Shown here piece by piece: positions 1-26,669 of a DNA stretch of 26,669 nucleotides. Made by a program: the position numbers and the translations under genes. A model generated the notes under the pieces. It ran no database searches, was not told the origin of the DNA, and saw only the letters and a list, made by a program, of their open reading frames with translations. Position 1 is the first letter of the stretch. The number at the start of each line of letters is the position of its first letter. This DNA comes from Oscillospiraceae bacterium (lineage in GTDB: Bacteria > Bacillota > Clostridia > Oscillospirales > Acutalibacteraceae), in contig CADAVL010000010.1 in assembly GCA_902791335.1 (NCBI GenBank), forward strand, positions 1 to 26,669, written 5' to 3'.

Positions 1-815
1 CCGGTAATGGCTTTTGGATTGAATGCTCCTGCCACGATTTCCACAAAAGCATCCGGGATTTTGGTAAGATTCATTAAAATCAGCAGAACCGCAAAGATAA
101 AATAGGTGATCGCCATAAACGGCACCACAATTTCAGAAACCTTTGCAATACGCTTAATACCGCCCAACACGACCAACGCCACGAAAGCGGTAACCAGTAA
201 GCCGCCGATCACAACCGACCAGGTGTAGCTGCACTCGCCGATGGTAAAGGCAACGTGCGCTTTATCGCCGTCGAAGAAGCCTTCCACCGCGGTGGTGATA
301 CCGTTAATCTGGGTGAGTGTACCGATACCCAAAAGACCGGCCAGCACGCCGAACAGCGCAAAAAGCTTGCCGAGCCATCTGAAGTTTTTGCCGAGACCTT
401 TTTCTATGTAAAAGAACGGGCCGCCGAGGAAGTGGCCTTTGCCGTCGTTTTCACGGTATTTTACCGCCAAAAGACCTTCGGCGTATTTGGTTGCCATGCC
501 GAAAAATGCGGCAACGAGCATCCAGAAGAGCGCGCCGGGGCCGCCGGCACAGATCGCCGTGGCCACACCCACGATGTTACCGGTACCGATGGTGGCCGAA
601 AGCGCCGTGCAAAGCGCGCCGAAGCTTGTAACCTCGCCCTCGCCGCCTTCTTCATTTTTTACCATGAATTTCAGTGCTTTGCCAAGATGCAGCACCTGCA
701 CAAGACCGGTGCGACAGGTAAGATAGATGCCGGTGCCGAGAATGAGAATGATCATAAACCAGCCCCAGACGTATCCGTCTACCTTCTCAATGATTTGGTT
801 GATTTGTTCGAGCAT
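1..815 (-). CDS. Alanine/glycine:cation symporter (AGCS family), N-terminal ~271 aa; the 3' part runs off the window start
   Basis: Reverse-strand translation from ATG (revcomp of 813-815) reads MLEQINQIIEKVDGYVWGWFMIILILGTGIYLTCRTGLVQ...GALCTALSATIGTGNIVGVATAI...GPFFYIEKGLGK, the hallmark AGCS N-terminus. An RBS-like GAAAGGAA lies upstream. The ORF is absent from the supplied track because no stop falls inside the window. Confidence 0.85.
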   Translation of the reverse strand, partial: MLEQINQIIEKVDGYVWGWFMIILILGTGIYLTCRTGLVQVLHLGKALKFMVKNEEGGEGEVTSFGALCTALSATIGTGNIVGVATAICAGGPGALFWMLVAAFFGMATKYAEGLLAVKYRENDGKGHFLGGPFFYIEKGLGKNFRWLGKLFALFGVLAGLLGIGTLTQINGITTAVEGFFDGDKAHVAFTIGECSYTWSVVIGGLLVTAFVALVVLGGIKRIAKVSEIVVPFMAITYFIFAVLLILMNLTKIPDAFVEIVAGAFNPKAIT

Positions 816-15614: not shown

Positions 15615-15826
15615 CGCGCTTTCCCTCCTTTTTGGCCCTGATTTTCGCCGCGTTTGCGTTTATATGGCACCCCTTGGTGGCAGTTTTCAACATTTTTTGA
15701 CACAGTTATATTTTATATCCTCATCAAGAAAAAATCAAGCCGCCCGACACTCAAAATTCGTGCCGTGCGGCTTTCAGCTGACGGGCGAACCCGTCACACA
15801 AAAATTTTAAATTAATCCAACGGCTT

Positions 15827-15990
15827 CATTGTCGGGATTCGGACAGAAGCCGGGAATTATCAAGGATTATCAAGCATTTACGAGCATTTTCCAAAAATAA
15901 AACCGCACAAACAAGGTCGTATCAAGAATTATCAAGAATTCCGACATGCGTATGTTGGTGTAACTTTTGGTGTAAGTGTAACCTTGATAG
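15827..15990 (+). repeat. Repeat copy A (~165 bp), about 90% identical to 25093-25270, carrying at least 5 TATCAAG-like iteron motifs
   Basis: Copy A reads ...GGGAATTATCAAGGATTATCAAGCATTTACGAGCATTTTCCAAAAATAAAACCGCACAAACAAGGTCGTATCAAGAATTATCAAGAATTCC...GGTGTAACTTTTGGTGTAAGTGTAACCTTGATAG. It aligns colinearly with copy B. Confidence 0.8.
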
Positions 15991-16098
15991 GAAGGTAGTT
16001 GCAGAGATAGTAAGTGACGAAACCTGCACAAGACAAGCCGTACTGCTCATATCGGGCAATATCAGGTGCCTTGCCCGTAGGGGGGGTAGAACTGTCTG

Positions 16099-16280
16099 CT
16101 AATTGGAAGGTGTAAAAGAACACACAAGACAGTAATCCCATTCAGCAAGCAGTTTCCTGTCCGTTGTGGCTAAATCATTGTATCCTGCAAGAACCGCCCT
16201 GTCCGTACAAACCGGGCATACTGTTCCTTTTACACGAACATTGATATTTCTTTCTTAGGCTTTGCAGCAGCTTTTGCCAT
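16099..16280 (-). pseudogene. Frameshifted N-terminal remnant of a DUF4379 zinc-ribbon-repeat protein, paralogous to 25355-26599
   Basis: RBS GGAGGT plus ATG gives MAKAAAKPKKEISMFV, then a stop. A +1 frame continues as NVRVKGTVCPVCTDRAVLAGYNDLATTDRKLLAEWDY. That matches the repeat unit of the intact paralog (VKGTSCPVCAERQVLRGHNDLATTDYMLCKEWDY). Confidence 0.55.
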
Positions 16281-16616
16281 TTGTATTACCTCCACATTCT
16301 ATTAGCTACTCGAATACAAGGTCGAATACAAGTATATCCTATCATTATAAGTGTCCAATAAAACGGACTTATGATTCGTCTTCGGGAAGAACATCCATAA
16401 AGATCAGCTGATTCTGGTATACTGCCGCAGCGGTAATCGGAGTAAGCAGGCATCTAAAAAAATGGTGAAATTGGGCTACACCAATATCATTGAGATCGGT
16501 GGAATTAATAGTTGGCCCGGTGAAACAGTCACCGGCGATAAGTGATAAAATCACAGAACAAGGAATGACTACCGGATATAATAAAGCTATAAAAAAGAAA
16601 ACAGGAGGACTTAAAT

Positions 16617-16922
16617 ATGTCTGCTATCAGTGTTAATAAAAATAATTTCAATCAAGAGGTTTTGAACTCGGACAAGCCCGTCCTGATGGATTTCTGGGCT
16701 CCCTGGTGTGGTCCTTGCCGCATGGTAGTTCCTCTGGTAGAGGAGATTGCCAAGGAGCGCTCCGATATCAAGGTTGTTAAAATTAATGTGGATGAGGAAC
16801 AGGAACTGGCTATGCAGTTCGGTGTGATGAGCATACCCACTCTGGTGGTTATGAAGAACGGAAAGATTGTCAATCAAGTCACCGGTGCCAGACCTAAGGC
16901 TCAGATTCTCGCCATGCTGTAA
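16617..16922 (+). CDS. trxA: Thioredoxin
   Basis: WAPWCGPCR active site, 101 aa, RBS AGGAGG. Confidence 0.9.
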
Positions 16923-16934
16923 GGAGGTGCAATG

Positions 16935-17255
16935 ATGAGCTTCTTCGATTTCCTGAAAGGCCCTGACATCAATCAGGGTGTCAAAGAGTATAGCGCCACG
17001 GATAGCGCAGTCCTGCTGGATGTTCGCACCCCCGACGAATACCGGCAGGGGCATATCCCCGGCAGTAAAAATGTTCCTTTGCAGTCCATTAGCAAAGTGG
17101 CCGGCATGATTGACAATAAATCTACCCCCATTTTTGTTCATTGTCTCAGCGGTGCAAGAAGCCGTCAGGCAACTGCTATTTTGCAGCAAATGGGTTATAC
17201 TAACGTGAAAAACATAGGCGGAATTTCCGCTTATACAGGAAAGGTAGAACGATAA
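16935..17255 (+). CDS. Single-domain rhodanese (sulfurtransferase)
   Basis: Active-site loop VHCLSGARS. ~106 aa. RBS AAGGAGG. ATG at 16932 or 16935. Confidence 0.85.
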   Translation: MSFFDFLKGPDINQGVKEYSATDSAVLLDVRTPDEYRQGHIPGSKNVPLQSISKVAGMIDNKSTPIFVHCLSGARSRQATAILQQMGYTNVKNIGGISAYTGKVER

Positions 17256-17256
17256 T

Positions 17257-18947
17257 ATGAAAGTTGTCATTGTAGGCGGTGTGGCAGGCGGTGCTACCGC
17301 TGCCGCCCGTATTCGCAGACTGAATGAGCAGGCAGAAATCGTAGTGTTTGAGCGGTCGGGATATATCTCCTATGCCAACTGTGGTCTGCCGTACTATATC
17401 GGTGATGTGATTACCGATCCCGAAGAACTGACCCTACAAACACCGGAAAGCTTCTTCTCCCGGTTCCTTGTAAACATGAAGGTGCGCCATGAGGTCACGG
17501 CTATCCATCCCGAAAAAAAGAAGTTACCGTGAAAAATCTGGAAACCGGTGAGGAGTTCGAGGAGAGCTATGACAAGCTGATTCTCTCTCCCGGAGCCAAG
17601 CCTACCCAGCCCCGGCTTCCCGGTATAGGAATCGGCAAGCTATTTACGTTGCGTACTGTGGAGGACACCTTCCGCATCAAAGACTACATTAACAAAAACC
17701 ATCCTAAATCCGCTGTACTGGCAGGCGGTGGCTTCATTGGATTGGAGCTGGCAGAGAACCTGCGAGAGTTGGGGATGGATGTCACCATTGTCCAGCGTCC
17801 AAAACAGCTTATGAATCCCTTTGATGCCGATATGGCTTCTTTCATCCATAATGAAATGCGTAGGGCTGGTGTAAAGCTGGCACTTGGTCATACCGTAGAA
17901 GGGTTTGAGGAAAGGGACGGCGGCGTGGATGTGCTGCTGAAAGAAGAACAGCCTCTCCATGCAGATATGGTAATCCTGGCCATTGGTGTTTCTCCCGAAA
18001 CCACCCTTGCAAAGGATGCCGGGTTGGAGCTGGGCATTAAAGGAAGTATTGTGGTCAATGACCGAATGGAAACCTCCATTTCCGACATCTATGCCGTGGG
18101 CGATGCGGTGCAGGTGAAGCACTTCGTCACCGGGAAGGATGCTCTGATCTCTTTGGCTGGCCCTGCCAATAAACAGGGACGAATCGCTGCGGACAACATC
18201 TGTGGCGGAGACAGCCATTATACCGGCTCCCAAGGCAGCAGTGTCATCAAGATCTTCGGCATGACTGCCGCTACTACCGGCGTAAATGAGACCAACGCCA
18301 GAAAAACAGGGCTGGATGTTGATACGGTTATCCTGTCGCCCATGAGCCATGCAGGTTACTACCCCGGCGGGAAAGTCATGACAATGAAGGTGGTCTTTGA
18401 AAAGGCGACTTATCGCCTGCTGGGTGCGCAGATCGTAGGCTATGAAGGTGTGGATAAGCGCATTGATGTGCTGGCCACCGCTATCCGGGCCGGAATGAAA
18501 GCCACGGAACTGAAGGATCTGGATCTGGCCTACGCACCGCCTTATTCTTCTGCGAAAGATCCGGTAAATATGGCTGGCTTTATGGTTGAGAATATCGCAA
18601 ACGGTGTTCTGAAACAATGGCATCTGGAAGATGCAGATCGCCTTCCTCGTGACGGAAGCGTAACTCTGTTGGACACCCGCACTGTGAAAGAATTCGCACA
18701 CGGACACATTGACGGCTTCTTTAACATCCCGGTGGACGAGCTGCGGGAGCGGCTGGGTGAGCTGGACAAGCGTAAGCCTGTCTACGTCATCTGTCAGAGC
18801 GGTCTGCGCAGCTACATTGCCTGTCGTATCCTGGCCGGAAACGGCTTTGACTGCTATAACTTCTCCGGCGGCTTTCGGTTCTATGATGCTGTGACCAATG
18901 ATCGCTGTCTCATTGAATCGGCTACGGCCTGCGGAATGGACAAATAA
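17257..18947 (+). CDS. cdr: CoA-disulfide / CoA-persulfide reductase with C-terminal rhodanese domain (CoADR-RHD). It is interrupted by a -1 frameshift in an A7 run at 17513-17519. This is either a pseudogene or a sequencing error.
   Basis: ORF 17257-17532 carries the FAD motif VVIVGGVAGGATAAARI and the redox Cys (SYANCGLPY). ORF 17529-18947 continues the pyridine-nucleotide-disulfide oxidoreductase fold and ends with a rhodanese domain (VYVICQSGLRS). Adding one A in the run restores IHPEKKEVTVKNLETGEEF. The combined length of ~563 aa is the expected size. Confidence 0.85.
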
Positions 18948-18949
18948 AC

Positions 18950-18997
18950 ATCCGCCGCATCTCTCCAACAATTTTGGTAGAGATGCGGCGGATTTTC
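18950..18997. terminator. Bidirectional intrinsic terminator with a 15-bp perfect stem, ATCCGCCGCATCTCT/AGAGATGCGGCGGAT
   Basis: The stem is followed by TTTCATCC on the plus strand. It lies between the convergent CoADR and ZIP genes. Confidence 0.7.
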
Positions 18998-19040
18998 ATC
19001 CTCTGACTGCAGCAAACATTTCAAACATCTTAATCACACT

Positions 19041-19796
19041 TTACCCCAAAAAGAAATTACTGACCAGCATCACACAGAATCCGGCCAGGAGCGCATAGGT
19101 TGCTCCGGTCTCGCTGCCGTGGGCATGGGTTTCGGGAATCATTTCATCACTGATGACATAGAGCATGGTTCCTCCCGCAAAGGCCAGAGCAAAGGGGAGA
19201 ATGGCCGAAGCAATGCTTACGGCCCAATATCCCAGAAGCGTACCGACGACTTCGATCAGCCCGGTCACCATGGCGCAGACAAAGGTTTTTACCGGGGATA
19301 CGCCTGCTGCCAGCATGGGCGCAATGATCACCATGCCTTCGGGGATGTTCTGCAGGGCGATACCGCAGGCGATCATCATCGCCTGCGCCGTGTCTTCACT
19401 TCCAAAGCTGACACCGGCGGCAATCCCCTCCGGCAGGTTATGGATCGCGATGGCTGTGACAAACAGCAATACCTTGTCAAGGTTGGCGCTGCGGTGTGTT
19501 TCCGTATCGGTTCCCACCAGCCTATGCAGGTGGGGAACCAGCTTATCAATGAGATTCAGGCACACCGCCCCAGTAAAGATCCCGATGATGGAAATGAGGA
19601 TCCCATGGGTTCCGCCATAATTGAGAGATGGCAGAATAAGTCCCAGTACAGCCGCAGACAGCATAACACCTGCCGCAAAGGACAGCACTATGTCGGAGAA
19701 TTTGTGGGAGATCTTCCGAAAGACAAAGCCAATGAGACTTCCAAAAATGGTCGCGCCCCCCACGCCGAGGGCGGTAAGCAATACGATTTTCATCAT
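19041..19796 (-). CDS. zupT: ZIP-family divalent metal (Zn/Fe) transporter, ZupT-like
   Basis: MMKIVLLTALGVGGATIFGSLIGFVF resembles the ZupT N-terminus. HNLPEGIAAGVSFG and ALQNIPEGMVI are the signature metal-binding helices. I set the start at ATGATG (19796/19793) rather than the track's upstream GTG. Confidence 0.8.
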   Translation of the reverse strand: MMKIVLLTALGVGGATIFGSLIGFVFRKISHKFSDIVLSFAAGVMLSAAVLGLILPSLNYGGTHGILISIIGIFTGAVCLNLIDKLVPHLHRLVGTDTETHRSANLDKVLLFVTAIAIHNLPEGIAAGVSFGSEDTAQAMMIACGIALQNIPEGMVIIAPMLAAGVSPVKTFVCAMVTGLIEVVGTLLGYWAVSIASAILPFALAFAGGTMLYVISDEMIPETHAHGSETGATYALLAGFCVMLVSNFFLG

Positions 19797-19812
19797 CAAC
19801 GATACAGGTCTT

Positions 19813-20472
19813 CTATTTATCAGAAAGTTCCTGCAATCTCCTTTCTTCACAAATCTCCACGATGCCCCGCGCCAGCTTCACCATACCCTCGTTCTGGAAA
19901 TAGCGAAGCATTCGGGTAACTACCTCACGGGCGGTGCCCATGTGGCCCGCAATGGTTTCATGGGTAATCTTGAGGGTGTTTGTTTCCTCTATGCTGCATT
20001 CCTCCAGCAGAAATTCTGCCAGCCTTTTATCAAAGCTTTTCCACATTATCTGCTCCATGAGCCACATAACCTCAGAAAAACGGGTAGCCATAATTTCGTT
20101 GGTAAAATTAGCTACCACAGCAGACTCTTTCATTAAGCGACCATAAGTGTCAGCAGAAATAACCCACATCGTGGTATCCTTCTGCGCCTCAATGGTGATC
20201 TCAAACTGAATGCTGTTCATCATACAGGAGGCGGAAAACAGGCAAATATCCCGATCAAACAAACGATAGAGGCTAATCTCCCGTCCTTCATCGGAAAGAA
20301 GATAGGCACGAAGCTGTCCGCTTTTTACCAGCAGAAGACCGGTACACTCCACAGTTCCGTTGTGAATCACAGTCCCCTTGTCCACTTTTCGTAAAACTGC
20401 ATTTTGCTCCAAAATCTGCTGCTGGGTCGGTGTCAGTTTGTTCCAAATTGGAAAATAGGATGAAAAATCCAT
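19813..20472 (-). CDS. Crp/Fnr-family transcriptional regulator (219 aa): cNMP-binding-like domain plus C-terminal HTH
   Basis: HTH region TLKITHETIAGHMGTAREVVTRMLRYFQNEGMV with an N-terminal beta-barrel. RBS AAGGAGG is followed 7 nt later by ATG at 20472. The rest of the 517-aa track ORF is antisense to the DUF134-NifX gene. Confidence 0.85.
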   Translation of the reverse strand: MDFSSYFPIWNKLTPTQQQILEQNAVLRKVDKGTVIHNGTVECTGLLLVKSGQLRAYLLSDEGREISLYRLFDRDICLFSASCMMNSIQFEITIEAQKDTTMWVISADTYGRLMKESAVVANFTNEIMATRFSEVMWLMEQIMWKSFDKRLAEFLLEECSIEETNTLKITHETIAGHMGTAREVVTRMLRYFQNEGMVKLARGIVEICEERRLQELSDK

Positions 20473-20516
20473 GGATACACCTCCTTGAATACACATAGTA
20501 TAAAATAATTTATGGC

Positions 20517-20565
20517 ATCTGTCAATAATTTCGTTGACATATAGGAAATGGAGATGTATAATGGT
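20517..20565. promoter_or_regulatory. Divergent back-to-back promoters. Plus strand: TTGACA-N17-TATAAT (20533-20561). Minus strand: TTGACA-N17-TATACT.
   Basis: The two -35 hexamers form TGTCAA-N8-TTGACA. They drive the Crp/Fnr gene leftward and the DUF134 gene rightward. Confidence 0.5.
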
Positions 20566-20607
20566 CATATAAATGACATATGCCGTAAATAATATGGTGG
20601 TGAATCT

Positions 20608-21378
20608 ATGCCAAGACCGAGAAAATGCAGAAAAGTTTGTTGTTTGCCGGATAATGATGGTTTTGTTCCGGTTCGTGGCGGCGAGGAACTGACTCCCATT
20701 GTCCTGAATGTGGATGAGTATGAATCCATTCGCCTGATTGACCGTGAAGGTTTTTCTCAGGAGCAATGCGGAGAATATATGCGTATTGCCAGAACAACGG
20801 TTCAGCAGATTTATGCAGCTGCCCGCAAAAAACTGGCCGATGCGCTGGTTGAGGGACTTCCTCTGCGAATCGAGGGAGGGGATTTTACACTCTGCAGCGG
20901 AAACAGCGCAGCCTACGGGTGCAGAAATTGCTATCAGCAAAAAATCCATCCGATGCACGAAAAACCGAAAGGAGATCATATTATGAGAATTGCAGTCACT
21001 TATGAAAACGGAGAAATCTTTCAGCACTTCGGTCACACCGAACAGTTTAAACTCTACGATGTGGAAGATGGAAAAATCATTTCGTCTGAGGTTGTGGATG
21101 CTGGCGGCAGCGGACATGGTGCACTGGCAGGCGTCCTGCGTGCACTGAAGGTGGATGCCCTGATCTGCGGCGGTATTGGCGGCGGTGCCCAGATGGCACT
21201 GAGCGATGTGGGTATCCGGCTTTATGGTGGTGTTTCCGGCAACGCTGATGCAGCAGCAGAAGCACTGGCAGCAGGCGAGCTGGACTTCAACCCCAATGTC
21301 CGGTGTGATCATCACGACCACCATGGGGAAGGTCACTCTTGCGGTTTTCACGGCTGCGGCCATCACTCCTGCGACTGA
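20608..21378 (+). CDS. Fusion of a DUF134 (UPF0251) putative DNA-binding domain with a NifX/NifB-like (dinitrogenase FeMo-cofactor family) domain, plus a C-terminal His/Cys-rich tail. 256 aa.
   Basis: MPRPRKCRKVCCLPDNDGFVP is the DUF134 signature. MRIAVTYENGEIFQHFGHTEQFKLYDV...ALICGGIGGGAQMAL is the NifX-like fold. The tail is CDHHDHHGEGHSCGFHGCGHHSCD. An internal AAAGGAGA-N7-ATG sits at the domain junction (~20975-20992). Confidence 0.75.
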   Translation: MPRPRKCRKVCCLPDNDGFVPVRGGEELTPIVLNVDEYESIRLIDREGFSQEQCGEYMRIARTTVQQIYAAARKKLADALVEGLPLRIEGGDFTLCSGNSAAYGCRNCYQQKIHPMHEKPKGDHIMRIAVTYENGEIFQHFGHTEQFKLYDVEDGKIISSEVVDAGGSGHGALAGVLRALKVDALICGGIGGGAQMALSDVGIRLYGGVSGNADAAAEALAAGELDFNPNVRCDHHDHHGEGHSCGFHGCGHHSCD

Positions 21379-21460
21379 AATAGGTGATTAAGTCACGGAA
21401 TATGTGTCGTGATTTGATAAAATATAGTTAAAGGAGGCGGTAAAACCTAAGTAATAAATC

Positions 21461-21489
21461 TTGATAAATTCACAGAATTGTGATATAAT
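21461..21489 (+). promoter_or_regulatory. Promoter TTGATA-N17-TATAAT whose spacer holds the palindrome TCACA-GAAT-TGTGA
   Basis: TTGATA 21461-21466, TCACA 21470-21474, TGTGA 21479-21483, TATAAT 21484-21489. The operator-like 5-4-5 palindrome overlaps the core promoter of the hydrogenase-rubrerythrin gene. Confidence 0.45.
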
Positions 21490-21556
21490 TATTGTGTATA
21501 AACTGGCAAACAAAAACAATTTCAGAATAAACAATTAAGAATAAAGGAGAAATGAA

Positions 21557-23620
21557 ATGGCAGAGCATTTACCACTATCTGTTCGGGTGCCGATTGAAGC
21601 GGATAACCCAAGTATTTGCCGCAAAGAAGAGCTTTGCATCAAGTGCGGACAATGCCGTGAGGTCTGCACGAATGAAATCGGTGTTCACGGTACATATTCC
21701 TTCGAGCAAACCGAAGGAAAGGCGATCTGTATCCACTGCGGACAGTGTGCAAACGTCTGTCCTACCGCAAGCATTACCGAGGTCTACGAATACCCGGACG
21801 TGAAGGCGGCTATCGCAGATCCCGATAAGATCGTTATCGTCAGCACGTCCCCCTCTGTGCGCGTTGCTCTCGGTGAAGAGTTTGGAATGGCGAAAGGAAG
21901 CTTCGTGCAGGGTAAAATGATCGCCCTTATGCGTGCTCTCGGTGCCGATTACGTCCTGGATACCAACTTTGCCGCAGACCTAACCATCGTTGAGGAAGCA
22001 AGCGAGCTTGTTCGTCGCATTACGACAGGAGATAAGCCCCTGCCTCAGTTTACAAGCTGCTGCCCTGCGTGGGTGAAGTTTGCTGAAACCTACTATCCCG
22101 AAATGCTCCCGCACGTATCAACTGCCAAGAGCCCCATCGGTATGCAAGGCCCCACTATTAAGACCTACTTCGCCCAGAAGATGGGTATTGATCCGAAGAA
22201 GATCGTTAACGTAGCACTTACCCCCTGTACTGCGAAGAAATTCGAGATCCGACGCGAGGAAATGAACGCCGCAGGCAAGAAGCTCGGTATCCCCGAAATG
22301 CGCGATATGGACTACGTTGTTACAACTCGCGAGCTTGCTCTTTGGGCAAAGGAAGCAAAGATCGACTTTGCTTCGCTTGAGGATAGCGATTACGACCGCT
22401 TTATGGGTGAAGCATCGGGTGCAGGCGTGATCTTCGGTAATACCGGAGGTGTTATGGAGGCAGCGCTTCGTACTGCATACTCCTATATCACGGGTGAGAT
22501 CCCCCCGGGCGCACTTCTTGACCTTAAGCCCGTTCGCGGATATGAGGGCATCAGAGAAGCAAGCCTTGACGTCAAGGGAACCACTGTAAACGTAGCTGTT
22601 GTTTATGGTACAGCCAACGCTCGCAAGCTCATCGAACTAATCAAGAGTGGCGAGAAGAACTACCACTTCGTTGAGGTGATGACCTGTCCCGGCGGATGCA
22701 TCGGCGGTGGCGGTCAGCCCCGTGATTTTGCGGCAGATGCTAATGCAAGCCGTAAGGCAAGAATCGAGAGCCTTTACAAGAGAGATGCCTCTTTGACTCT
22801 TCGTTCGAGCCACGAAAACCCTGAGATAAAGGAGCTTTACGAGGAATTTTACGGCAAACCGCTCAGTGAGCTTGCGGAAGAAATGCTCCATACTATGTAC
22901 ACTGATCGCTCAAGCGACATCAATAAAGAAATTATAAAAGGAGAAACAAAGAAAATGGAAAAATGGAAATGCACAGTCTGCGGTTACATTCACGAAGGCC
23001 CTATGACACCTGATTTTAAGTGCCCCATCTGCAAGCAGCCTGCCAACAAGTTTGTGAAGATTGAGGATGCTGCGGCTCCTGCAAAGAATCCCTATGCAGG
23101 TACCAAAACCGAGAAAAATCTGTGGGAAGCCTTTGCTGGTGAGAGTCAGGCCCGGAACAAGTACACCTACTTCGCCTCCGTCGCCAAGAAAGCCGGCTAC
23201 GAGCAGATCGCCGCGCTGTTCCTGCATACTGCACAGAACGAGATGGAGCACGCCAAGCTGTGGTTCAAAGCTCTGGGCGAGCTGGGTGATACTGCCGAGA
23301 ACCTGCTCCATGCTGCTGAAGGTGAGAACGCCGAGTGGACAGATATGTATGACCGCATGGCTCGTGAAGCTGATGAGGAGGGATTCCATGATCTGGCTGA
23401 ACAGTTCCGTGGCGTAGCTGCCATTGAGAAGATGCACGAGGAGCGCTACCGCAAGCTTTTGAGCAACGTGGAGGCTATGCAGGTGTTTGAGAAGAGCGGC
23501 GTTACCATCTGGGAGTGCCGTAACTGCGGACATATCGTAGTAGGAACCAAGGCTCCTGATATCTGCCCTGTCTGCAAACATCCTCAGGCATTCTTCGAAG
23601 TGCGTGCGGAAAACTATTGA
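21557..23620 (+). CDS. hydA: [FeFe]-hydrogenase catalytic subunit fused to rubredoxin, rubrerythrin and a C-terminal rubredoxin-like domain. 687 aa.
   Basis: Two ferredoxin-like Cys motifs ([23 protein letters not shown]). H-cluster motifs are [17 protein letters not shown] and [16 protein letters not shown]. Rubredoxin CTVCGY...CPICKQP follows, then rubrerythrin diiron helices ([11 protein letters not shown]...NEMEHAKLW...[11 protein letters not shown]...IEKMHEERY), then C-terminal CRNCGH...CPVCKHP. RBS AAAGGAGA. Confidence 0.85.
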
Positions 23621-23639
23621 TAAAACGGAGGAAATTAAA

Positions 23640-24017
23640 ATGAGTGCAAAGTTTTATATCTGCCGTCATTGCGGCAATCTGGTTGGTATGATTCACGACG
23701 CAGGTGTTCCCATGATGTGTTGTGGTCAGAAAATGGAGACTCTTGAGCCTAACACCGTAGAAGCCAGCGGCGAAAAGCATCTGCCTGCTGTTACTGTTGA
23801 AGATGGTGCAATCCATGTCAATGTGGGTTCTGTAGATCATCCTATGCTTCCGGAGCATTTCATCGAGTGGATCTATGTCCAGACCGAAAACGGTGGTCAG
23901 CGTAAGGTTTTGAAGCCCGGTGACGAACCCCATGTCACCTTCTTCCTGGGAGACGATAAAGCAGCAGCTGTCTATGCTTATTGCAATCTCCACGGCTTGT
24001 GGAAAACTGAAATTTAA
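23640..24017 (+). CDS. dfx: Desulfoferrodoxin (2Fe superoxide reductase)
   Basis: N-terminal desulforedoxin-like CRHCGN...MCCGQ. C-terminal SOR ligands EKHLP...H...CNLHGLW. RBS GGAGG is followed 8 nt later by ATG at 23640 (the track start at 23604 has no RBS). Confidence 0.85.
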   Translation: MSAKFYICRHCGNLVGMIHDAGVPMMCCGQKMETLEPNTVEASGEKHLPAVTVEDGAIHVNVGSVDHPMLPEHFIEWIYVQTENGGQRKVLKPGDEPHVTFFLGDDKAAAVYAYCNLHGLWKTEI

Positions 24018-24034
24018 CATGGAGGTTCTTGTAA

Positions 24035-24544
24035 ATGAACGAAAAAGTACATGCGCTTATCAATCAACAGATAAATAAGGAATTCTATTCCGCATACCTT
24101 TATCTCAATTTTTCAAACTATTTCGAGGAAGTCGGGCTTGACGGCTTTGCCAACTGGTATAAAATTCAGGCTCAGGAAGAGCGTGACCACGCCATGCTTT
24201 TCTATCAGTACCTGCAAAACGAAAACCAGAAGGTAACGCTTGAAGCCATTGACAAGCCTAATCTGAATGCAGCTTGCCATATGGATGTTTTGAAGGCGGG
24301 TCTTGAGCACGAAAAATATGTAACCTCGCTGATTAATGATATCTATAGTGAGGCTTACGAAGCAAGGGATTTCCGTACCATGCAGTTCCTCGATTGGTTT
24401 GTGAAAGAACAAGGTGAAGAAGAAACCAATGCAAATAATTTGATTTCCAAAATGGAACTCTTTGGCTCCGATCCCAAAAGCTTGTATATGCTCAATCAGG
24501 AATTGGCAGCACGAATTTACTCTGCTCCTTCTTTGGTTCTTTAA
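24035..24544 (+). CDS. ftn: Bacterial non-haem ferritin
   Basis: LINQQINKEFYSAYLYLNFSNYF...QAQEERDHAMLFYQYL ferroxidase-centre helices. 169 aa. RBS GGAGG. Confidence 0.9.
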   Translation: MNEKVHALINQQINKEFYSAYLYLNFSNYFEEVGLDGFANWYKIQAQEERDHAMLFYQYLQNENQKVTLEAIDKPNLNAACHMDVLKAGLEHEKYVTSLINDIYSEAYEARDFRTMQFLDWFVKEQGEEETNANNLISKMELFGSDPKSLYMLNQELAARIYSAPSLVL

Positions 24545-24582
24545 TCACTATAGCCTATAGATGATGGAAGTATAAAAGGCAG

Positions 24583-24619
24583 TATGCCGCCTGTCGGTTT
24601 TCCGGCAGGCGTTTTTTTA
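24583..24619 (+). terminator. Intrinsic terminator after ferritin: GCCGCCTGTCGG/CCGGCAGGC stem followed by GTTTTTTT
   Basis: Stem at 24585-24594 and 24602-24610 with one mismatch. U-tract at 24611-24618. Confidence 0.6.
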
Positions 24620-24692
24620 CAGAGGATGCCTATGATTTAAGATAATGCCAGCTTTATCTATTTACATCGCATAGATGAAGTAGAACTGAACA

Positions 24693-24935
24693 TTGAGGAT
24701 AAGGCAGCAATATATCCGTTATAATAAAAAGCAAAACAGTTACTCGTGGGAATATCAACCCAAAGGATATATGGAGTTACCCGCCAAAATCAAATGGGTC
24801 AAAGAACAGGGATTATGGCAACAGGTTCGTAAATATTATTTATACAAGAAGAACACAAACGATAACCCTAATAAACATTCAAGAACAATCTTTGCAGAAA
24901 CCATTCACGAAATATGGCAGAAGAATAAAGATTAA
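24693..24935 (+). CDS. Hypothetical Lys/Tyr-rich small ORF (80 aa) between two terminators. The coding status is doubtful.
   Basis: Open frame only. The start is non-ATG (TTG) and RBS support is weak. An internal ATG (MELPAKIKW) is preceded by AAAGGA with short spacing. I could not recognise a domain. Confidence 0.2.
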   Translation: MRIRQQYIRYNKKQNSYSWEYQPKGYMELPAKIKWVKEQGLWQQVRKYYLYKKNTNDNPNKHSRTIFAETIHEIWQKNKD

Positions 24936-24939
24936 AAAA

Positions 24940-24967
24940 GCAGGTATCAAATTACTTTGATACCTGC
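24940..24967. terminator. 12-bp perfect hairpin GCAGGTATCAAA-TTAC-TTTGATACCTGC. A U6 tract follows on the minus strand.
   Basis: On the minus strand it would terminate transcripts that read from the DUF4379 gene (25355-26599) through repeat copy B. Confidence 0.6.
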
Positions 24968-25092
24968 TAAAACTTTAATAAGTTCTCATATTGTGTCAGG
25001 ATAATTTCTGAAGCCGTGGGTAAATCGTGGGTAAAATGCCTTTTTTGACACTTTCAAAACCACGAAAACCCGCATAAATAAAGGGTTTTATT

Positions 25093-25270
25093 AGTCCAAC
25101 GATTTCATTGTGGGGATTCGGGCAGAAACCGGGAATTATCGGGAATTATCAAGCATTTACGGGCATTTTACAAAAATAAAACCACACGAACAAGGTCGTA
25201 TCGAGAATTATCAAGAATTCTGTAATGAGTATGTTGGTGTAACTTTTGGTGTAAGGTGTAACCTTGATAC
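25093..25270 (+). repeat. Repeat copy B (~170 bp), about 90% identical to 15827-15990, with the same TATCAAG-like motif array
   Basis: Reads ...GGGAATTATCGGGAATTATCAAGCATTTACGGGCATTTTACAAAAATAAAACCACACGAACAAGGTCGTATCGAGAATTATCAAGAATTCTG...GGTGTAACTTTTGGTGTAAGGTGTAACCTTGATAC. Confidence 0.8.
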
Positions 25271-25354
25271 ATTGAATTGCCCACCAAAGAAACGCATCTC
25301 TTTTATTTGGCATATAAGCATTATACACCAAAAGTCCGAGAAAATCAAGTGATG

Positions 25355-26599
25355 TCACTGTTGTGTAATATCTTTCCATTTGAAAAAAGCCTTTTTGCAT
25401 TTCTCAATATCTTCTTGACTGTTTGAAAGGATATATATGTTTTTCTTTTGAAATATCTTTTTGATTTTATCCGCAAGTTCATAGTGATTTTTTGCTGAAA
25501 CCTCAAAATATGATATTCCGTTCATTTTACATAAGTGCTCTTTAACCGCCCTTTCATTTTCGTTTCCCGACCTTTTATCTATGCGCTCAATAACAGAAAA
25601 CATATCAGGGATATATGTTTCCACCGGCAGTCCGATTATATTATCGTCAAATGTGACTACTCTCATATTATACTGTTTTGCATATAACGAAACCAAAAGC
25701 TGAACAAGCAAGCTGTCAAATTCAGATTCGCAAACCGAGCAGGTTTTGCCTTCGTGAGTTCGCTCACATATTTTTGCATTCCAACTGTGGCCGTACCTGC
25801 ATAACCACCACGCACGATTATGTGAATTTCTCGAAATCTCGGTTGGTGACACTTTGTTTTTTTCGTAGTCCCATTCCTTACATAGCATATAATCTGTCGT
25901 GGCTAAATCATTATGTCCTCTCAATACTTGTCGTTCAGCGCAAACCGGACAAGAAGTCCCTTTTACACGGGCACTGATTACAGACTTCCACTCATTGCCA
26001 CACGCCTTACACTTCCACCAAACATTCTTCGTGGACTTTGCATTAACCTGATCAGGGGAAAGAGGAAAGTTATGTTCAGACCATTCTTCTGCAATCGTAG
26101 GATGCGTGGTGGCAAGATCATTAAATCCTTTTAGTAATTTAATACCGCTGCAATAAGGGCATTGACTGCCTCCGGCTCTCGTAGATATCAAAGTGTACCA
26201 TTCATGTCCGAGACTGCATTTCCACCAAACTTTTTTATTCTTAAATGCCGTAACCATATTCGGGTACAATGGATAATTTCGCTCCGACCATTCTGCGGCA
26301 AGCTTTGGAAATCGTGAAGCAAGATCGTTAAATCCGGGCAGAACAATGTTGTGTAAGCAATAAGGACAGCCTGTGCCATTCACTCGGCTCTTTACTTCCG
26401 CCGCCCATTCGTGACCGCACTTTCCGTGCCATAATACTTTCTTATGTGATCCGGCAGAAAGCTCTGTTGGTTTTATTTTATTCTTCGACGACCATTCCTC
26501 TGCTAACGAGGGATGTGTCGTATTTAGATCGTTGACTCCTGCTATGACTCTTGCGCCGGAGCATATAGGACATATCGCAATCGTTTTGCAGTTCGACAC
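25355..26599 (-). CDS. Multi-repeat zinc-ribbon (DUF4379-like) protein. It has four tandem ~55-aa treble-clef repeats and a C-terminal ~120-aa domain of unknown (possibly nuclease-like) fold. 414 aa.
   Basis: Repeating unit NDLATTHPxxAEEWSxxNxxxPxxVxxxSxKKVWWKCxxGHEWxxxISxRxxGxxCPYC. GTG start with RBS AAGGAGG. The region looks, by eye, low in GC relative to the first half of the window. Confidence 0.75.
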   Translation of the reverse strand: MSNCKTIAICPICSGARVIAGVNDLNTTHPSLAEEWSSKNKIKPTELSAGSHKKVLWHGKCGHEWAAEVKSRVNGTGCPYCLHNIVLPGFNDLASRFPKLAAEWSERNYPLYPNMVTAFKNKKVWWKCSLGHEWYTLISTRAGGSQCPYCSGIKLLKGFNDLATTHPTIAEEWSEHNFPLSPDQVNAKSTKNVWWKCKACGNEWKSVISARVKGTSCPVCAERQVLRGHNDLATTDYMLCKEWDYEKNKVSPTEISRNSHNRAWWLCRYGHSWNAKICERTHEGKTCSVCESEFDSLLVQLLVSLYAKQYNMRVVTFDDNIIGLPVETYIPDMFSVIERIDKRSGNENERAVKEHLCKMNGISYFEVSAKNHYELADKIKKIFQKKNIYILSNSQEDIEKCKKAFFKWKDITQQ

Positions 26600-26669
26600 T
26601 TTGTGCGTCCTCCTTTCGTAAAATTCATAGCCATCGCAGTATGGCTATGTACTTGACCGGCTCATTTCC

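Follow-up and report, generated by a model that had tools for sequence, protein, structure and literature searches.

Integration at the 3' end of the lysyl-tRNA synthetase gene lysS is known from Streptococcus, where ICEs (integrative and conjugative elements) as well as decayed ICEs with a tyrosine integrase use this site, with repeats of 13-17 bp (Ambroset et al. 2016, PMC4701971). Tandem accretion of elements and their decay to cis-mobilizable elements (CIMEs) have been described for the ICESt1/ICESt3 family (PMC5704250). Here we analyze a stretch of 26,669 nucleotides from an Oscillospiraceae bacterium (assembly GCA_902791335.1, contig CADAVL010000010.1), referred to below as the window, which represents nearly all of a 26,677-nt metagenome contig and contains a block of redox genes bracketed by two direct repeats, copies A and B. 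We consider it highly probable that these repeats are attachment (att) arms of a family of lysS-targeting integrative elements in gut Clostridia (Oscillospiraceae and relatives), stacked in tandem. This view is built on the repeat itself, the core common to its copies, occupied and unoccupied targets, associated integrase (int) and excisionase (xis) genes, and the variable partners to which the repeat is joined. Stacked att arms are a known kind of structure and not a new mechanism. What is new is the host group, the integration at the seam between lysS and an appended tRNA-binding domain (tRNA_bind), and an arm that carries conserved promoter-like sites and a start codon.

The elements resemble the streptococcal lysS ICEs in having a site-specific tyrosine integrase, in using the last conserved lysS codons as their target, and in replacing the gene end with element sequence; the flanking direct repeat is 14 bp here as against 13-17 bp. 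The likeness is one of integrase type, target and repeat size. The hosts differ, being gut Clostridia (Oscillospiraceae-like), and so does the mode of integration, which is internal and splits a lysS-tRNA_bind gene. The arm beside the displaced domain has promoter-like sites and a start codon, unlike in the streptococcal elements, no conjugation module is seen in the 12 kb examined, and the smallest member is only 6 kb long. With the CIMEs of the ICESt1/ICESt3 family the window shares a resident element that appears to have decayed to a unit keeping both att sites but neither int nor xis, with foreign genes captured between the att sites; it differs from them in that the far-arm repeat motifs at one junction of the unit are unlike those at the other, no target gene flanks the array on the visible side, and the mobility of the unit is putative. 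Tn916 and lambda-type systems provide a third comparison: an integrase with an N-terminal arm-binding domain (PF02920) and a catalytic domain, a PF09035 Xis encoded just upstream of int, and short direct repeats on both arms, within ~50-170 bp of the core, are found in both. Tn916, however, has low target specificity and variable coupling sequences, whereas the elements described here use one fixed core, and the motif sequences appear unrelated to those of the Tn916 sites.

A repeat family with a common core

Self-comparison of the window returns one long pair of direct, colinear repeats (15788-15976 and 25067-25255), and alignment places their well-conserved part at ~15820-15990 in copy A and 25093-25270 in copy B. 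The 160-nt core module shows 90.0% identity between the copies, with a single 1-nt indel, and the longest perfect run is 27 nt. The BLAST E value of ~1e-64 puts the pair far beyond chance, and the repeat pair reported in a first-pass annotation of this DNA is real, direct and colinear. The motif TATCAAG occurs 12 times in the window against 2.9 expected, a count that none of 100 shuffles reaches, and 8 of the 12 occurrences sit inside the two repeats. A further motif absent from the first-pass annotation, GGTGTAA, is found 10 times against 1.8 expected; half of these instances lie inside the repeats, where a GGTGTAA/GTGTAA unit is present three times per copy. The motif layout proposed earlier required some correction. 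Two pairs of TATCAAG units per repeat are indeed found in copy A, with a start-to-start spacing of 10 bp (15858/15868 and 15920/15930) and not ~11 bp, but each pair of copy B includes a degenerate unit (TATCGGG at 25137 and TATCGAG at 25199). The inverted unit CCTTGATA is present at the right edge of both copies. Additional ATCAAG units do exist outside copy A, at 15723-15739 instead of 15712-15731 and with an 11-bp period; the pair ATCAAG-N5-ATCAAG found there has an expectation of 0.01. As for the suspected shift in base composition, it is the junction regions that have a low GC fraction (0.43-0.48 at 11-16.5 kb and 0.35-0.42 at 24-26 kb); the redox block, at 0.50-0.53, is close to the 0.48-0.53 of the window's left half. 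The window arrangement was assembled independently in three other samples and is therefore not an assembly artefact.

We searched for further copies with a 22-mer from the right part of the repeat and with a pattern from its left part. The 22-mer matches two species-representative genomes, an Oscillospiraceae metagenome-assembled genome and an uncultured Clostridiales genome, while the pattern matches 25 metagenome contigs. All 27 of these further loci contain true full-length copies with 78-99% identity. In each of the 29 copies, homology ends abruptly inside the shared 14-bp core (TCCCNACAATGAAR on the minus strand) or a few bases past its ATG, and the DNA beyond varies by locus. Presence at many loci without flanking variable DNA had been put forward earlier as a sign that the repeat is a common intergenic element unrelated to cassette boundaries. 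The repeat does occur at many loci, but the same core with variable DNA beyond it is found at every one of them, which supports a boundary role. Nothing similar to the repeat is present in IMG/VR, GenBank phages or PLSDB plasmids: all 20 of the 18-mer matches in IMG/VR proved to be chance matches of 18-22 nt, and BLAST with copy B gave no phage match and, among plasmids, nothing except a 26-nt hairpin that lies beyond the repeat.

On the minus strand the module has a consistent organization. Its 5' part contains a promoter-like site P1 (TTGATT-N17-TATAAT) just after the stop codon of the upstream gene, then a single TATCAAG unit (the inverted CCTTGATA) and three TTACACC units; the middle part contains a CTTGATAATT/CTCGATA pair followed by a T-rich stretch; and the 3' part contains a second promoter-like site P2 (TTGNAA-N17-GATAAT), with its -10 within the second pair (CTTGATAATT/CCCGATAATT), then CCCGAATCCCNACA and ATG AAR. 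P1 is conserved in most relatives and deleted from copy A. The homology of copy B with its relatives extends ~67 nt further rightward, to 25337, and then enters a DUF4379 gene.

The variability of the partners is seen directly at copy A. Three different left-hand sequences adjoin module A DNA that is 99.4-99.7% identical: the WYL-regulator genes of the window, a tRNA_bind open reading frame (ORF) reading ...IPTLKSLDADKK in L052 and L055, and another tRNA_bind ORF in L029. L052 and L055 are 99.7% identical to the window to the right of 15831 and unrelated to its left, and the switch point between the window and L052 (15830/15831) falls inside the 14-bp core.

The first-pass annotation had read the TATCAAG arrays as possible iterons and had suggested that homologous recombination between the repeats would excise the DNA between them. 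An explanation along these lines holds that the repeats are a local duplication bracketing a cassette, that the arrays are iterons or recombination sites, and that RecA-dependent recombination excises or duplicates the 9-kb redox block. The direct, colinear copies, the acquired DNA between them and the periodic arrays agree with it, yet we find it very hard to credit. Identity between the copies is limited to 90%, and their longest perfect run to 27 nt. Of the other loci, 8 are closer to copy A and 13 to copy B (top identities 99.4% and 95.6%, respectively); each copy being nearer to those of other genomes than to its partner, separate arrivals are indicated instead of duplication in place. 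L029, the only natural variant without the redox block, is 99.4% identical to the window across module A and a DUF4379 remnant and then joins ~16336 directly to ~24741. The 8.4-kb block, present in L052 and L055, is thus an insertion, or a deletion in L029, with ends that fall inside the bracket instead of at the repeats, and no deletion form that would correspond to recombination between the repeats occurs among the available contigs. An iteron origin is expected to have at least three iterons of ~17-22 bp beside rep, accompanied by DnaA boxes or an AT-rich region for unwinding. The units here are 7-10 bp long and paired, there are no three or more long iterons, and no rep gene is found in the window or the related loci examined; in relatives, the arrays are on att arms beside Tn916-type xis and int genes.

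The lysS target and a complete element

The sequence on the far side of the core identifies the target. In ten loci (L029, L031, L032, L036, L037, L041, L043, L044, L047 and L048) the ATG after the module opens a tRNA_bind (PF01588) ORF of ~156 aa, and in L052 and L055 the same ORF is present with a Leu codon in place of the ATG. In a protein search with the tRNA_bind ORF, many matches extend further upstream, and several of them read ...GIDRxxMLLT..AIRDVLLFPTMKSLDGVNKK... One such protein, P0011 of locus L049, reads ...AIRDVLLFPTMKSLDGVNKK... across the core; its residues 1-113 match the C-terminal end of LysRS (to model position 487/488) and its residues 124-264 a MetG-C-type tRNA-binding domain. 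L049 has the gene order dusB-greA-lysS and no module, its DNA across the core is CTGCTGTTCCCGACAATGAAGTCCTTAGAT, and a continuous lysS-tRNA_bind frame runs through CCCGACAATGAAG, as expected of an unoccupied target (attB). The DNA downstream is identical to the post-module DNA of L041, L031 and L048, and with the module missing this makes L049 an unoccupied target. The core accordingly corresponds to the canonical 3' end of lysS, which in these hosts has an extra C-terminal tRNA-binding domain, and the point at which the module stops is the seam between the LysRS core and this appended domain. Because lysS is fused to the tRNA-binding domain, integration at this point splits the gene. Other database proteins have at least four further unrelated upstream sequences joined exactly at ...PTMKSLDG, the window module being one of at least five seen there. 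In uncultured gut Clostridia, the lysS/tRNA_bind seam thus looks like a hotspot that serves for integration in general.

A complete element of 6 kb, with both junctions, is found in L048, where the 14-bp direct repeat TCCCGACAATGAAG is present at the lysS and tRNA_bind ends. Its order is lysS, core, a far arm of ~400 nt, a Tn916-type xis, a gene for a 407-aa integrase, three ORFs, module, core and tRNA_bind ORF. The lysS gene scores 645.8 bits against TIGR00499, reaching model position 494/496, and ends at attL with ...LLFPTMKPIE*. Integrase and excisionase genes are present in six relatives (L041, L042, L024, L048, L027 and L045). The integrases of L041 and L027 match PF00589 and PF02920, the Tn916 integrase arm-type DNA-binding domain, and small genes upstream of int in the same two loci encode proteins of the Tn916 Xis family (PF09035). 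L041, L042 and L024 share the order xis-int-DUF4379-module-core-tRNA_bind. This order of xis, int, cargo, module and core identifies the module as the att arm downstream of int, beside the displaced part of the target.

Not every module is followed by tRNA_bind. In both window copies and 15 other loci (L002, L003, L024-L028, L030, L033-L035, L038-L040 and L046) the frame opened by the ATG runs for three to seven more codons before a stop, as in MKPLD*, MKSLD* and MKPID*. The attL of L048 (...FPTMKPIE*) shows that the far arm supplies the truncated lysS with a few codons and a stop, so a module with such a tail marks a junction between two elements. In L027 and L045 the xis and int of the abutting element follow directly, and in L002 a DUF6462 (Xis-like) gene comes after the junction. 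To the left of the integrase in L027 and L045 we noticed by eye peroxiredoxin-like and flavodiiron/rubredoxin-like proteins, which would again be oxidative-stress cargo in the same family of sites.

The slot between int and the arm holds DUF4379 genes, SLATT_4 in L025 and, in L048, a 289-aa protein with no assigned family. Across L025, L038, L041 and L048 its contents range over DUF4379, SLATT_4 (a defence-associated two-transmembrane effector domain), decayed DUF4379 3' stubs of varied length and the 289-aa protein, which suggests that the slot beside the arm is a cargo-exchange hotspot. The 289-aa protein was at first taken by eye for SIR2, an assignment withdrawn for want of a Pfam match. 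PADLOC, run on the DUF4379, WYL, SPFH and 289-aa proteins, gave generic WYL matches only.

Short repeats are present on the far arms as well. That of L048 has two TTACACC units together with GATAATTC/TCAATAA units. In L024, L034 and L026 the far arm abutting the module has between two and four TTACACC units, at 70-100 nt from the core, and in L024 and L034 it contains TTCATAATTC/TCGATAATT units of the GATAATT type as well. Other far arms have different tandem repeats at the same distance: TTACGCC three times in L035, TTACGAC in L003, TTAAGCC/TTAAACC in L040 and TTGACAAC twice in L002. In the window, the corresponding tandem repeats are two TTTACCCACG units beside copy B and two ATCAAG units beside copy A. 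Such a motif layout on both arms would be expected for the arm-type and accessory sites of heterobivalent tyrosine recombinases, and the repeated units are probably sites for the arm-binding domain of the integrase and for Xis or host factors. Of the functions first suggested for the arrays, that of recombinase arm-type sites is the one that is broadly supported: each repeat abuts a site-specific recombination core, and its motifs behave in the manner of arm-type or accessory sites.

A division of labour among the motifs is a less likely alternative. The TATCAAG/GATAATTC pairs might be transcription-factor operators, for example 10-bp-phased direct repeats bound by a winged-helix protein, that control P2, with only the core and the TTACACC units serving the integrase. 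All copies have a proximal pair that overlaps the -10 of P2, a phasing of 10 bp would suit the binding of tandem dimers, and many far arms have TTACNCC-type repeats and no GATAATT units. However, GATAATT-type units do stand beside TTACACC on the far arms of L024, L034 and L048, where there is no equivalent promoter context. The operator and recombination roles are not mutually exclusive either; Tn916 Xis binds att arms and also affects transcription.

The promoter-like sites bear on another explanation, by which the repeat serves a stand-alone gene for a tRNA-binding protein as its native promoter or 5' leader, the latter possibly a T-box-like RNA or riboswitch; the repeat would have been duplicated locally together with DUF4379, and the left-hand DNA would consist of elements inserted at the start of that gene. 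P1 and P2 do read towards the ATG that opens the tRNA_bind ORF in the ten loci, the module is conserved as well as, or better than, the neighbouring coding DNA, and a DUF4379 fragment adjoins copy A too. Yet at the unoccupied site tRNA_bind is fused in frame to lysS with no module upstream, and in L048 the module is part of a unit bounded by 14-bp direct repeats and equipped with xis and int. These two loci already largely refute the leader explanation. The module is also up to 99% similar between loci whose abutting tRNA_bind genes are 72-86% similar. Neither a covarying structure nor a match to a curated family, the marks of a structured RNA leader, is seen: RNAalifold gives -22 kcal/mol for 215 nt with 1 of 45 pairs compensatory and a covariation term of -1.8 kcal/mol, and Rfam returns no family at threshold for either repeat, both in a search of the whole window and in sensitive searches on the two repeats. 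Altogether, we regard a native leader as very improbable.

Probable stacked junctions and cargo in the window

In terms of att arms, the window would have formed as follows. Elements with a Tn916-type heterobivalent tyrosine integrase and a Tn916-type Xis would integrate at the 14-bp core TCCCNACAATGAAR at the canonical lysS 3' end and split the fused gene; the far arm would give the LysRS core a few codons and a stop, and the module would be placed directly upstream of the displaced tRNA-binding domain. At core B, module B with its DUF4379 gene (DUF4379-B) would meet a second unit, adjoining the far arm of the latter. This unit would reach from 25.1 kb back to module A at 15.8 kb and carry the 8.4-kb redox block as cargo, and module A would in turn be joined at core A to other DNA, namely WYL regulator genes and then ordinary chromosome. 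The two element-element junctions in tandem would represent site-specific accretion. The predicted promoters P1 and P2 probably keep the split-off domain expressed where an element is inserted.

The order of features on the minus strand is consistent with this scheme. DUF4379-B is followed by module B, core B with MKSLD*, and a far arm with two TTTACCCACG units and two hairpins; then come a small ORF on the opposite strand, the redox block, a remnant of a second DUF4379 gene (DUF4379-A), module A and core A with MKPLD*. Beyond core A lie an arm with two ATCAAG units, two WYL/WCX genes, SPFH, YjbR and chromosomal genes. The cores are in direct orientation, no recombinase is encoded between them, and the internal unit, lacking xis and int, resembles a cis-mobilizable remnant. 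The segment from 15.8 to 25.1 kb thus looks like a decayed remnant of this kind, with redox genes as putative cargo, and may be mobile at present. The earlier proposal of an acquired unit between the repeats is borne out to the extent that the DNA between the two cores is acquired and variable partners are found at one core.

Several observations weigh against this interpretation. No integrase or other recombinase ORF, Xis, lysS or tRNA_bind is present within positions 1-26669, and the first-pass annotation was right that the window shows no integrase. Past ~5 kb of lower-GC genes to the left of core A, the contig together with a longer sister contig continues for at least 25 kb as ordinary chromosome without tRNA_bind, which means that the array of this genome either has been rearranged or lies elsewhere than at lysS. 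At its right end the contig cuts the neighbouring element and breaks off within the 5' end of parA, not beside an int gene. No excised, deleted or junction form is present among the few contigs recovered, and the presence/absence polymorphism of the redox block does not use the cores. Binding of proteins to the motifs and activity of the promoters are predictions. Two additional candidates were rejected: an element leftward of copy A with tRNA_bind behind it, since a further 10 kb on that side is ordinary chromosome, and an integrase just past the contig end, since that end is the parA 5' region. The WYL genes of the window have no homology with the WYL-WCX gene of the L041 element at E <= 1e-3.

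The right end also explains the form of DUF4379-B. Its first 10 codons (VSNCKTIAIC) and the last 99 nt of the window (26571-26669) are 100% identical to the parA 5' end in L026, so DUF4379-B is the product of a deletion that created a parA'-DUF4379 fusion, and this is where the contig ends. By tblastn the DUF4379-A remnant is 58% identical to DUF4379-B; a full-length paralogue in L026 matches it with 98% identity at the DNA level.

The left end of the redox block cuts a rhodanese gene. The part of the block with thioredoxin (trx), rhodanese and CoA-disulfide reductase (CoADR) genes (16397-18940) is ~96% identical in many unrelated contexts, with homology beginning at 16397 in the truncated rhodanese. 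In loci L050-L057 this part lies beside IS110, integrase/AAA or SDR genes, and the index of the assembly collection lists the identical 101-aa thioredoxin in ~18,500 blocks. It looks like a very widely spread redox module of gut Clostridia. The CoADR/rhodanese gene of the window is frameshifted into plus-strand ORFs of 91 aa and 472 aa (17257-17532 and 17529-18947). The same split is seen in L058, from another sample, and the ORF is unsplit at 563-572 aa in the 99.7%-identical L052/L055 and in remoter relatives. The frameshift is real and lineage-specific, and represents either a pseudogene or recoding.

The odd repeat pair is explained in this way as a set of stacked mobile-element boundaries, with exact coordinates for core, arm and cargo, which annotation pipelines would miss because the contig has no integrase. 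Genes against oxidative stress (thioredoxin, CoA-disulfide reductase, hydrogenase-rubrerythrin, desulfoferrodoxin and ferritin) travel here as cargo. A wider picture, which we entertain without favouring it, is that LysRS has the appended domain in a sizeable group of gut Clostridia, that a guild of elements inserts exactly at the LysRS seam and converts a fused enzyme into a split two-gene form, that the arm has evolved outward promoters and keeps the Met codon so that production of the domain continues, and that the slot beside the arm swaps cargo such as DUF4379, SLATT_4 and the oxidative-stress block of the window. If this were true, element carriage would rewire the build and regulation of an essential aminoacyl-tRNA synthetase; activity of the arm promoters would mean that carriage alters the architecture of this essential enzyme.

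Feature coordinates and further observations

Table 1. Cores, arms, cargo and associated features of the window, with positions counted from its first nucleotide.
Feature	Position	Strand	Remarks
Junction mini-frame ATG AAG CCG TTG GAT TAA (MKPLD*)	15812-15829	-	tail and stop as the left-hand partner's arm would give a truncated lysS
Core A TCCCGACAATGAAG, putative crossover region	15824-15837	-	codons ...(F/I)PTMK at the canonical lysS end
ATCAAG-N5-ATCAAG pair	15723-15739	+	left-hand partner arm, far side of core A
Module A, predicted att arm	15838-15989	-	repeat copy A
Module A, proximal TATCAAG pair	15858-15874
Module A, distal pair	15920-15936
Module A, GTGTAA x3	15957-15981
Module A, inverted CCTTGATA	15982-15989
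P2 promoter-like site, module A	15894-15866	-	TTGGAA-N17-GATAAT
DUF4379 paralogue A remnant	16132-16294	-	ribosome-binding site and ATG at ~16294 kept; 48-codon fragment 16132-16275
Redox block, putative cargo	16337-24740		inserted within decayed element; 5'-truncated rhodanese, trx, rhodanese, frameshifted CoADR-rhodanese, ZIP, Crp, DUF134-NifX, HydA-rubrerythrin, desulfoferrodoxin, ferritin (Pfam)
54-aa ORF (MELPAKIKW...)	24771-24935	+	no family match; also in L029 beside the junction
Bidirectional terminator-like hairpin	24939-24968		directly after the 54-aa ORF
Tandem TTTACCCACG x2	25015-25035	-	arm beyond core B; variant of TTACNCC far-arm repeats
Junction mini-frame ATG AAA TCG TTG GAC TAA (MKSLD*)	25091-25108	-
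Core B TCCCCACAATGAAA	25103-25116	-	
Module B, predicted att arm	25117-25269	-	repeat copy B
Module B, proximal pair	25137-25153
Module B, distal pair	25199-25215
Module B, GTGTAA x3	25236-25261
Module B, inverted CCTTGATA	25262-25269
P2 promoter-like site, module B	25173-25145	-	TTGTAA-N17-GATAAT
P1 promoter-like site	25320-25348	-	TTGATT-N17-TATAAT, 10/12 matches; just 3' of the DUF4379-B stop, reads towards the core
DUF4379-B, treble-clef zinc-finger repeat gene, 414 aa	25355-26599	-	Pfam; cargo slot beside the arm

The window has no tRNA or tmRNA gene that could serve as a target. The 26-nt hairpin mentioned above (AAAACCCGCATAAATAAAGGGTTTTA, 25066-25091) lies right after the junction stop of copy B; its perfect match to five plasmids from Aeromonas, Pseudomonas and uncultured hosts (E = 5e-3) is probably a chance match to terminator-like sequence. 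A sub-threshold Rfam match to IS102 RNA (24927-25142, minus strand; E = 0.004, 29.6 bits where the gathering score is 46) covers the far arm and core B and is probably driven by hairpins. The tandem TCGAATACAAG x2 recorded in the first-pass annotation is present, at 16310-16332 and not 16309-16332. Its period is 12 bp, 4 nt separate it from the redox block's left junction, and it may be an operator; the equivalent region of L029 is a divergent promoter between the DUF4379-A remnant and the 54-aa ORF.

Within the redox block, a 517-aa minus-strand ORF (19813-21366), for which the contig annotation has a gene of 512 aa, consists of a ~219-aa Crp-family gene with a shadow extension across the real DUF134-NifX gene on the plus strand (20608-21378), and relatives annotate the two as separate genes. 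At the other end of the window, a glycine riboswitch (RF00504, 51.9 bits) is found at 912-1054 on the minus strand, upstream of a Na+/alanine-symporter-family gene (1-815, minus strand) that runs off the left end. The riboswitch is divergent from a PF03458 'glycine transporter' gene at 1270-1926 on the plus strand.

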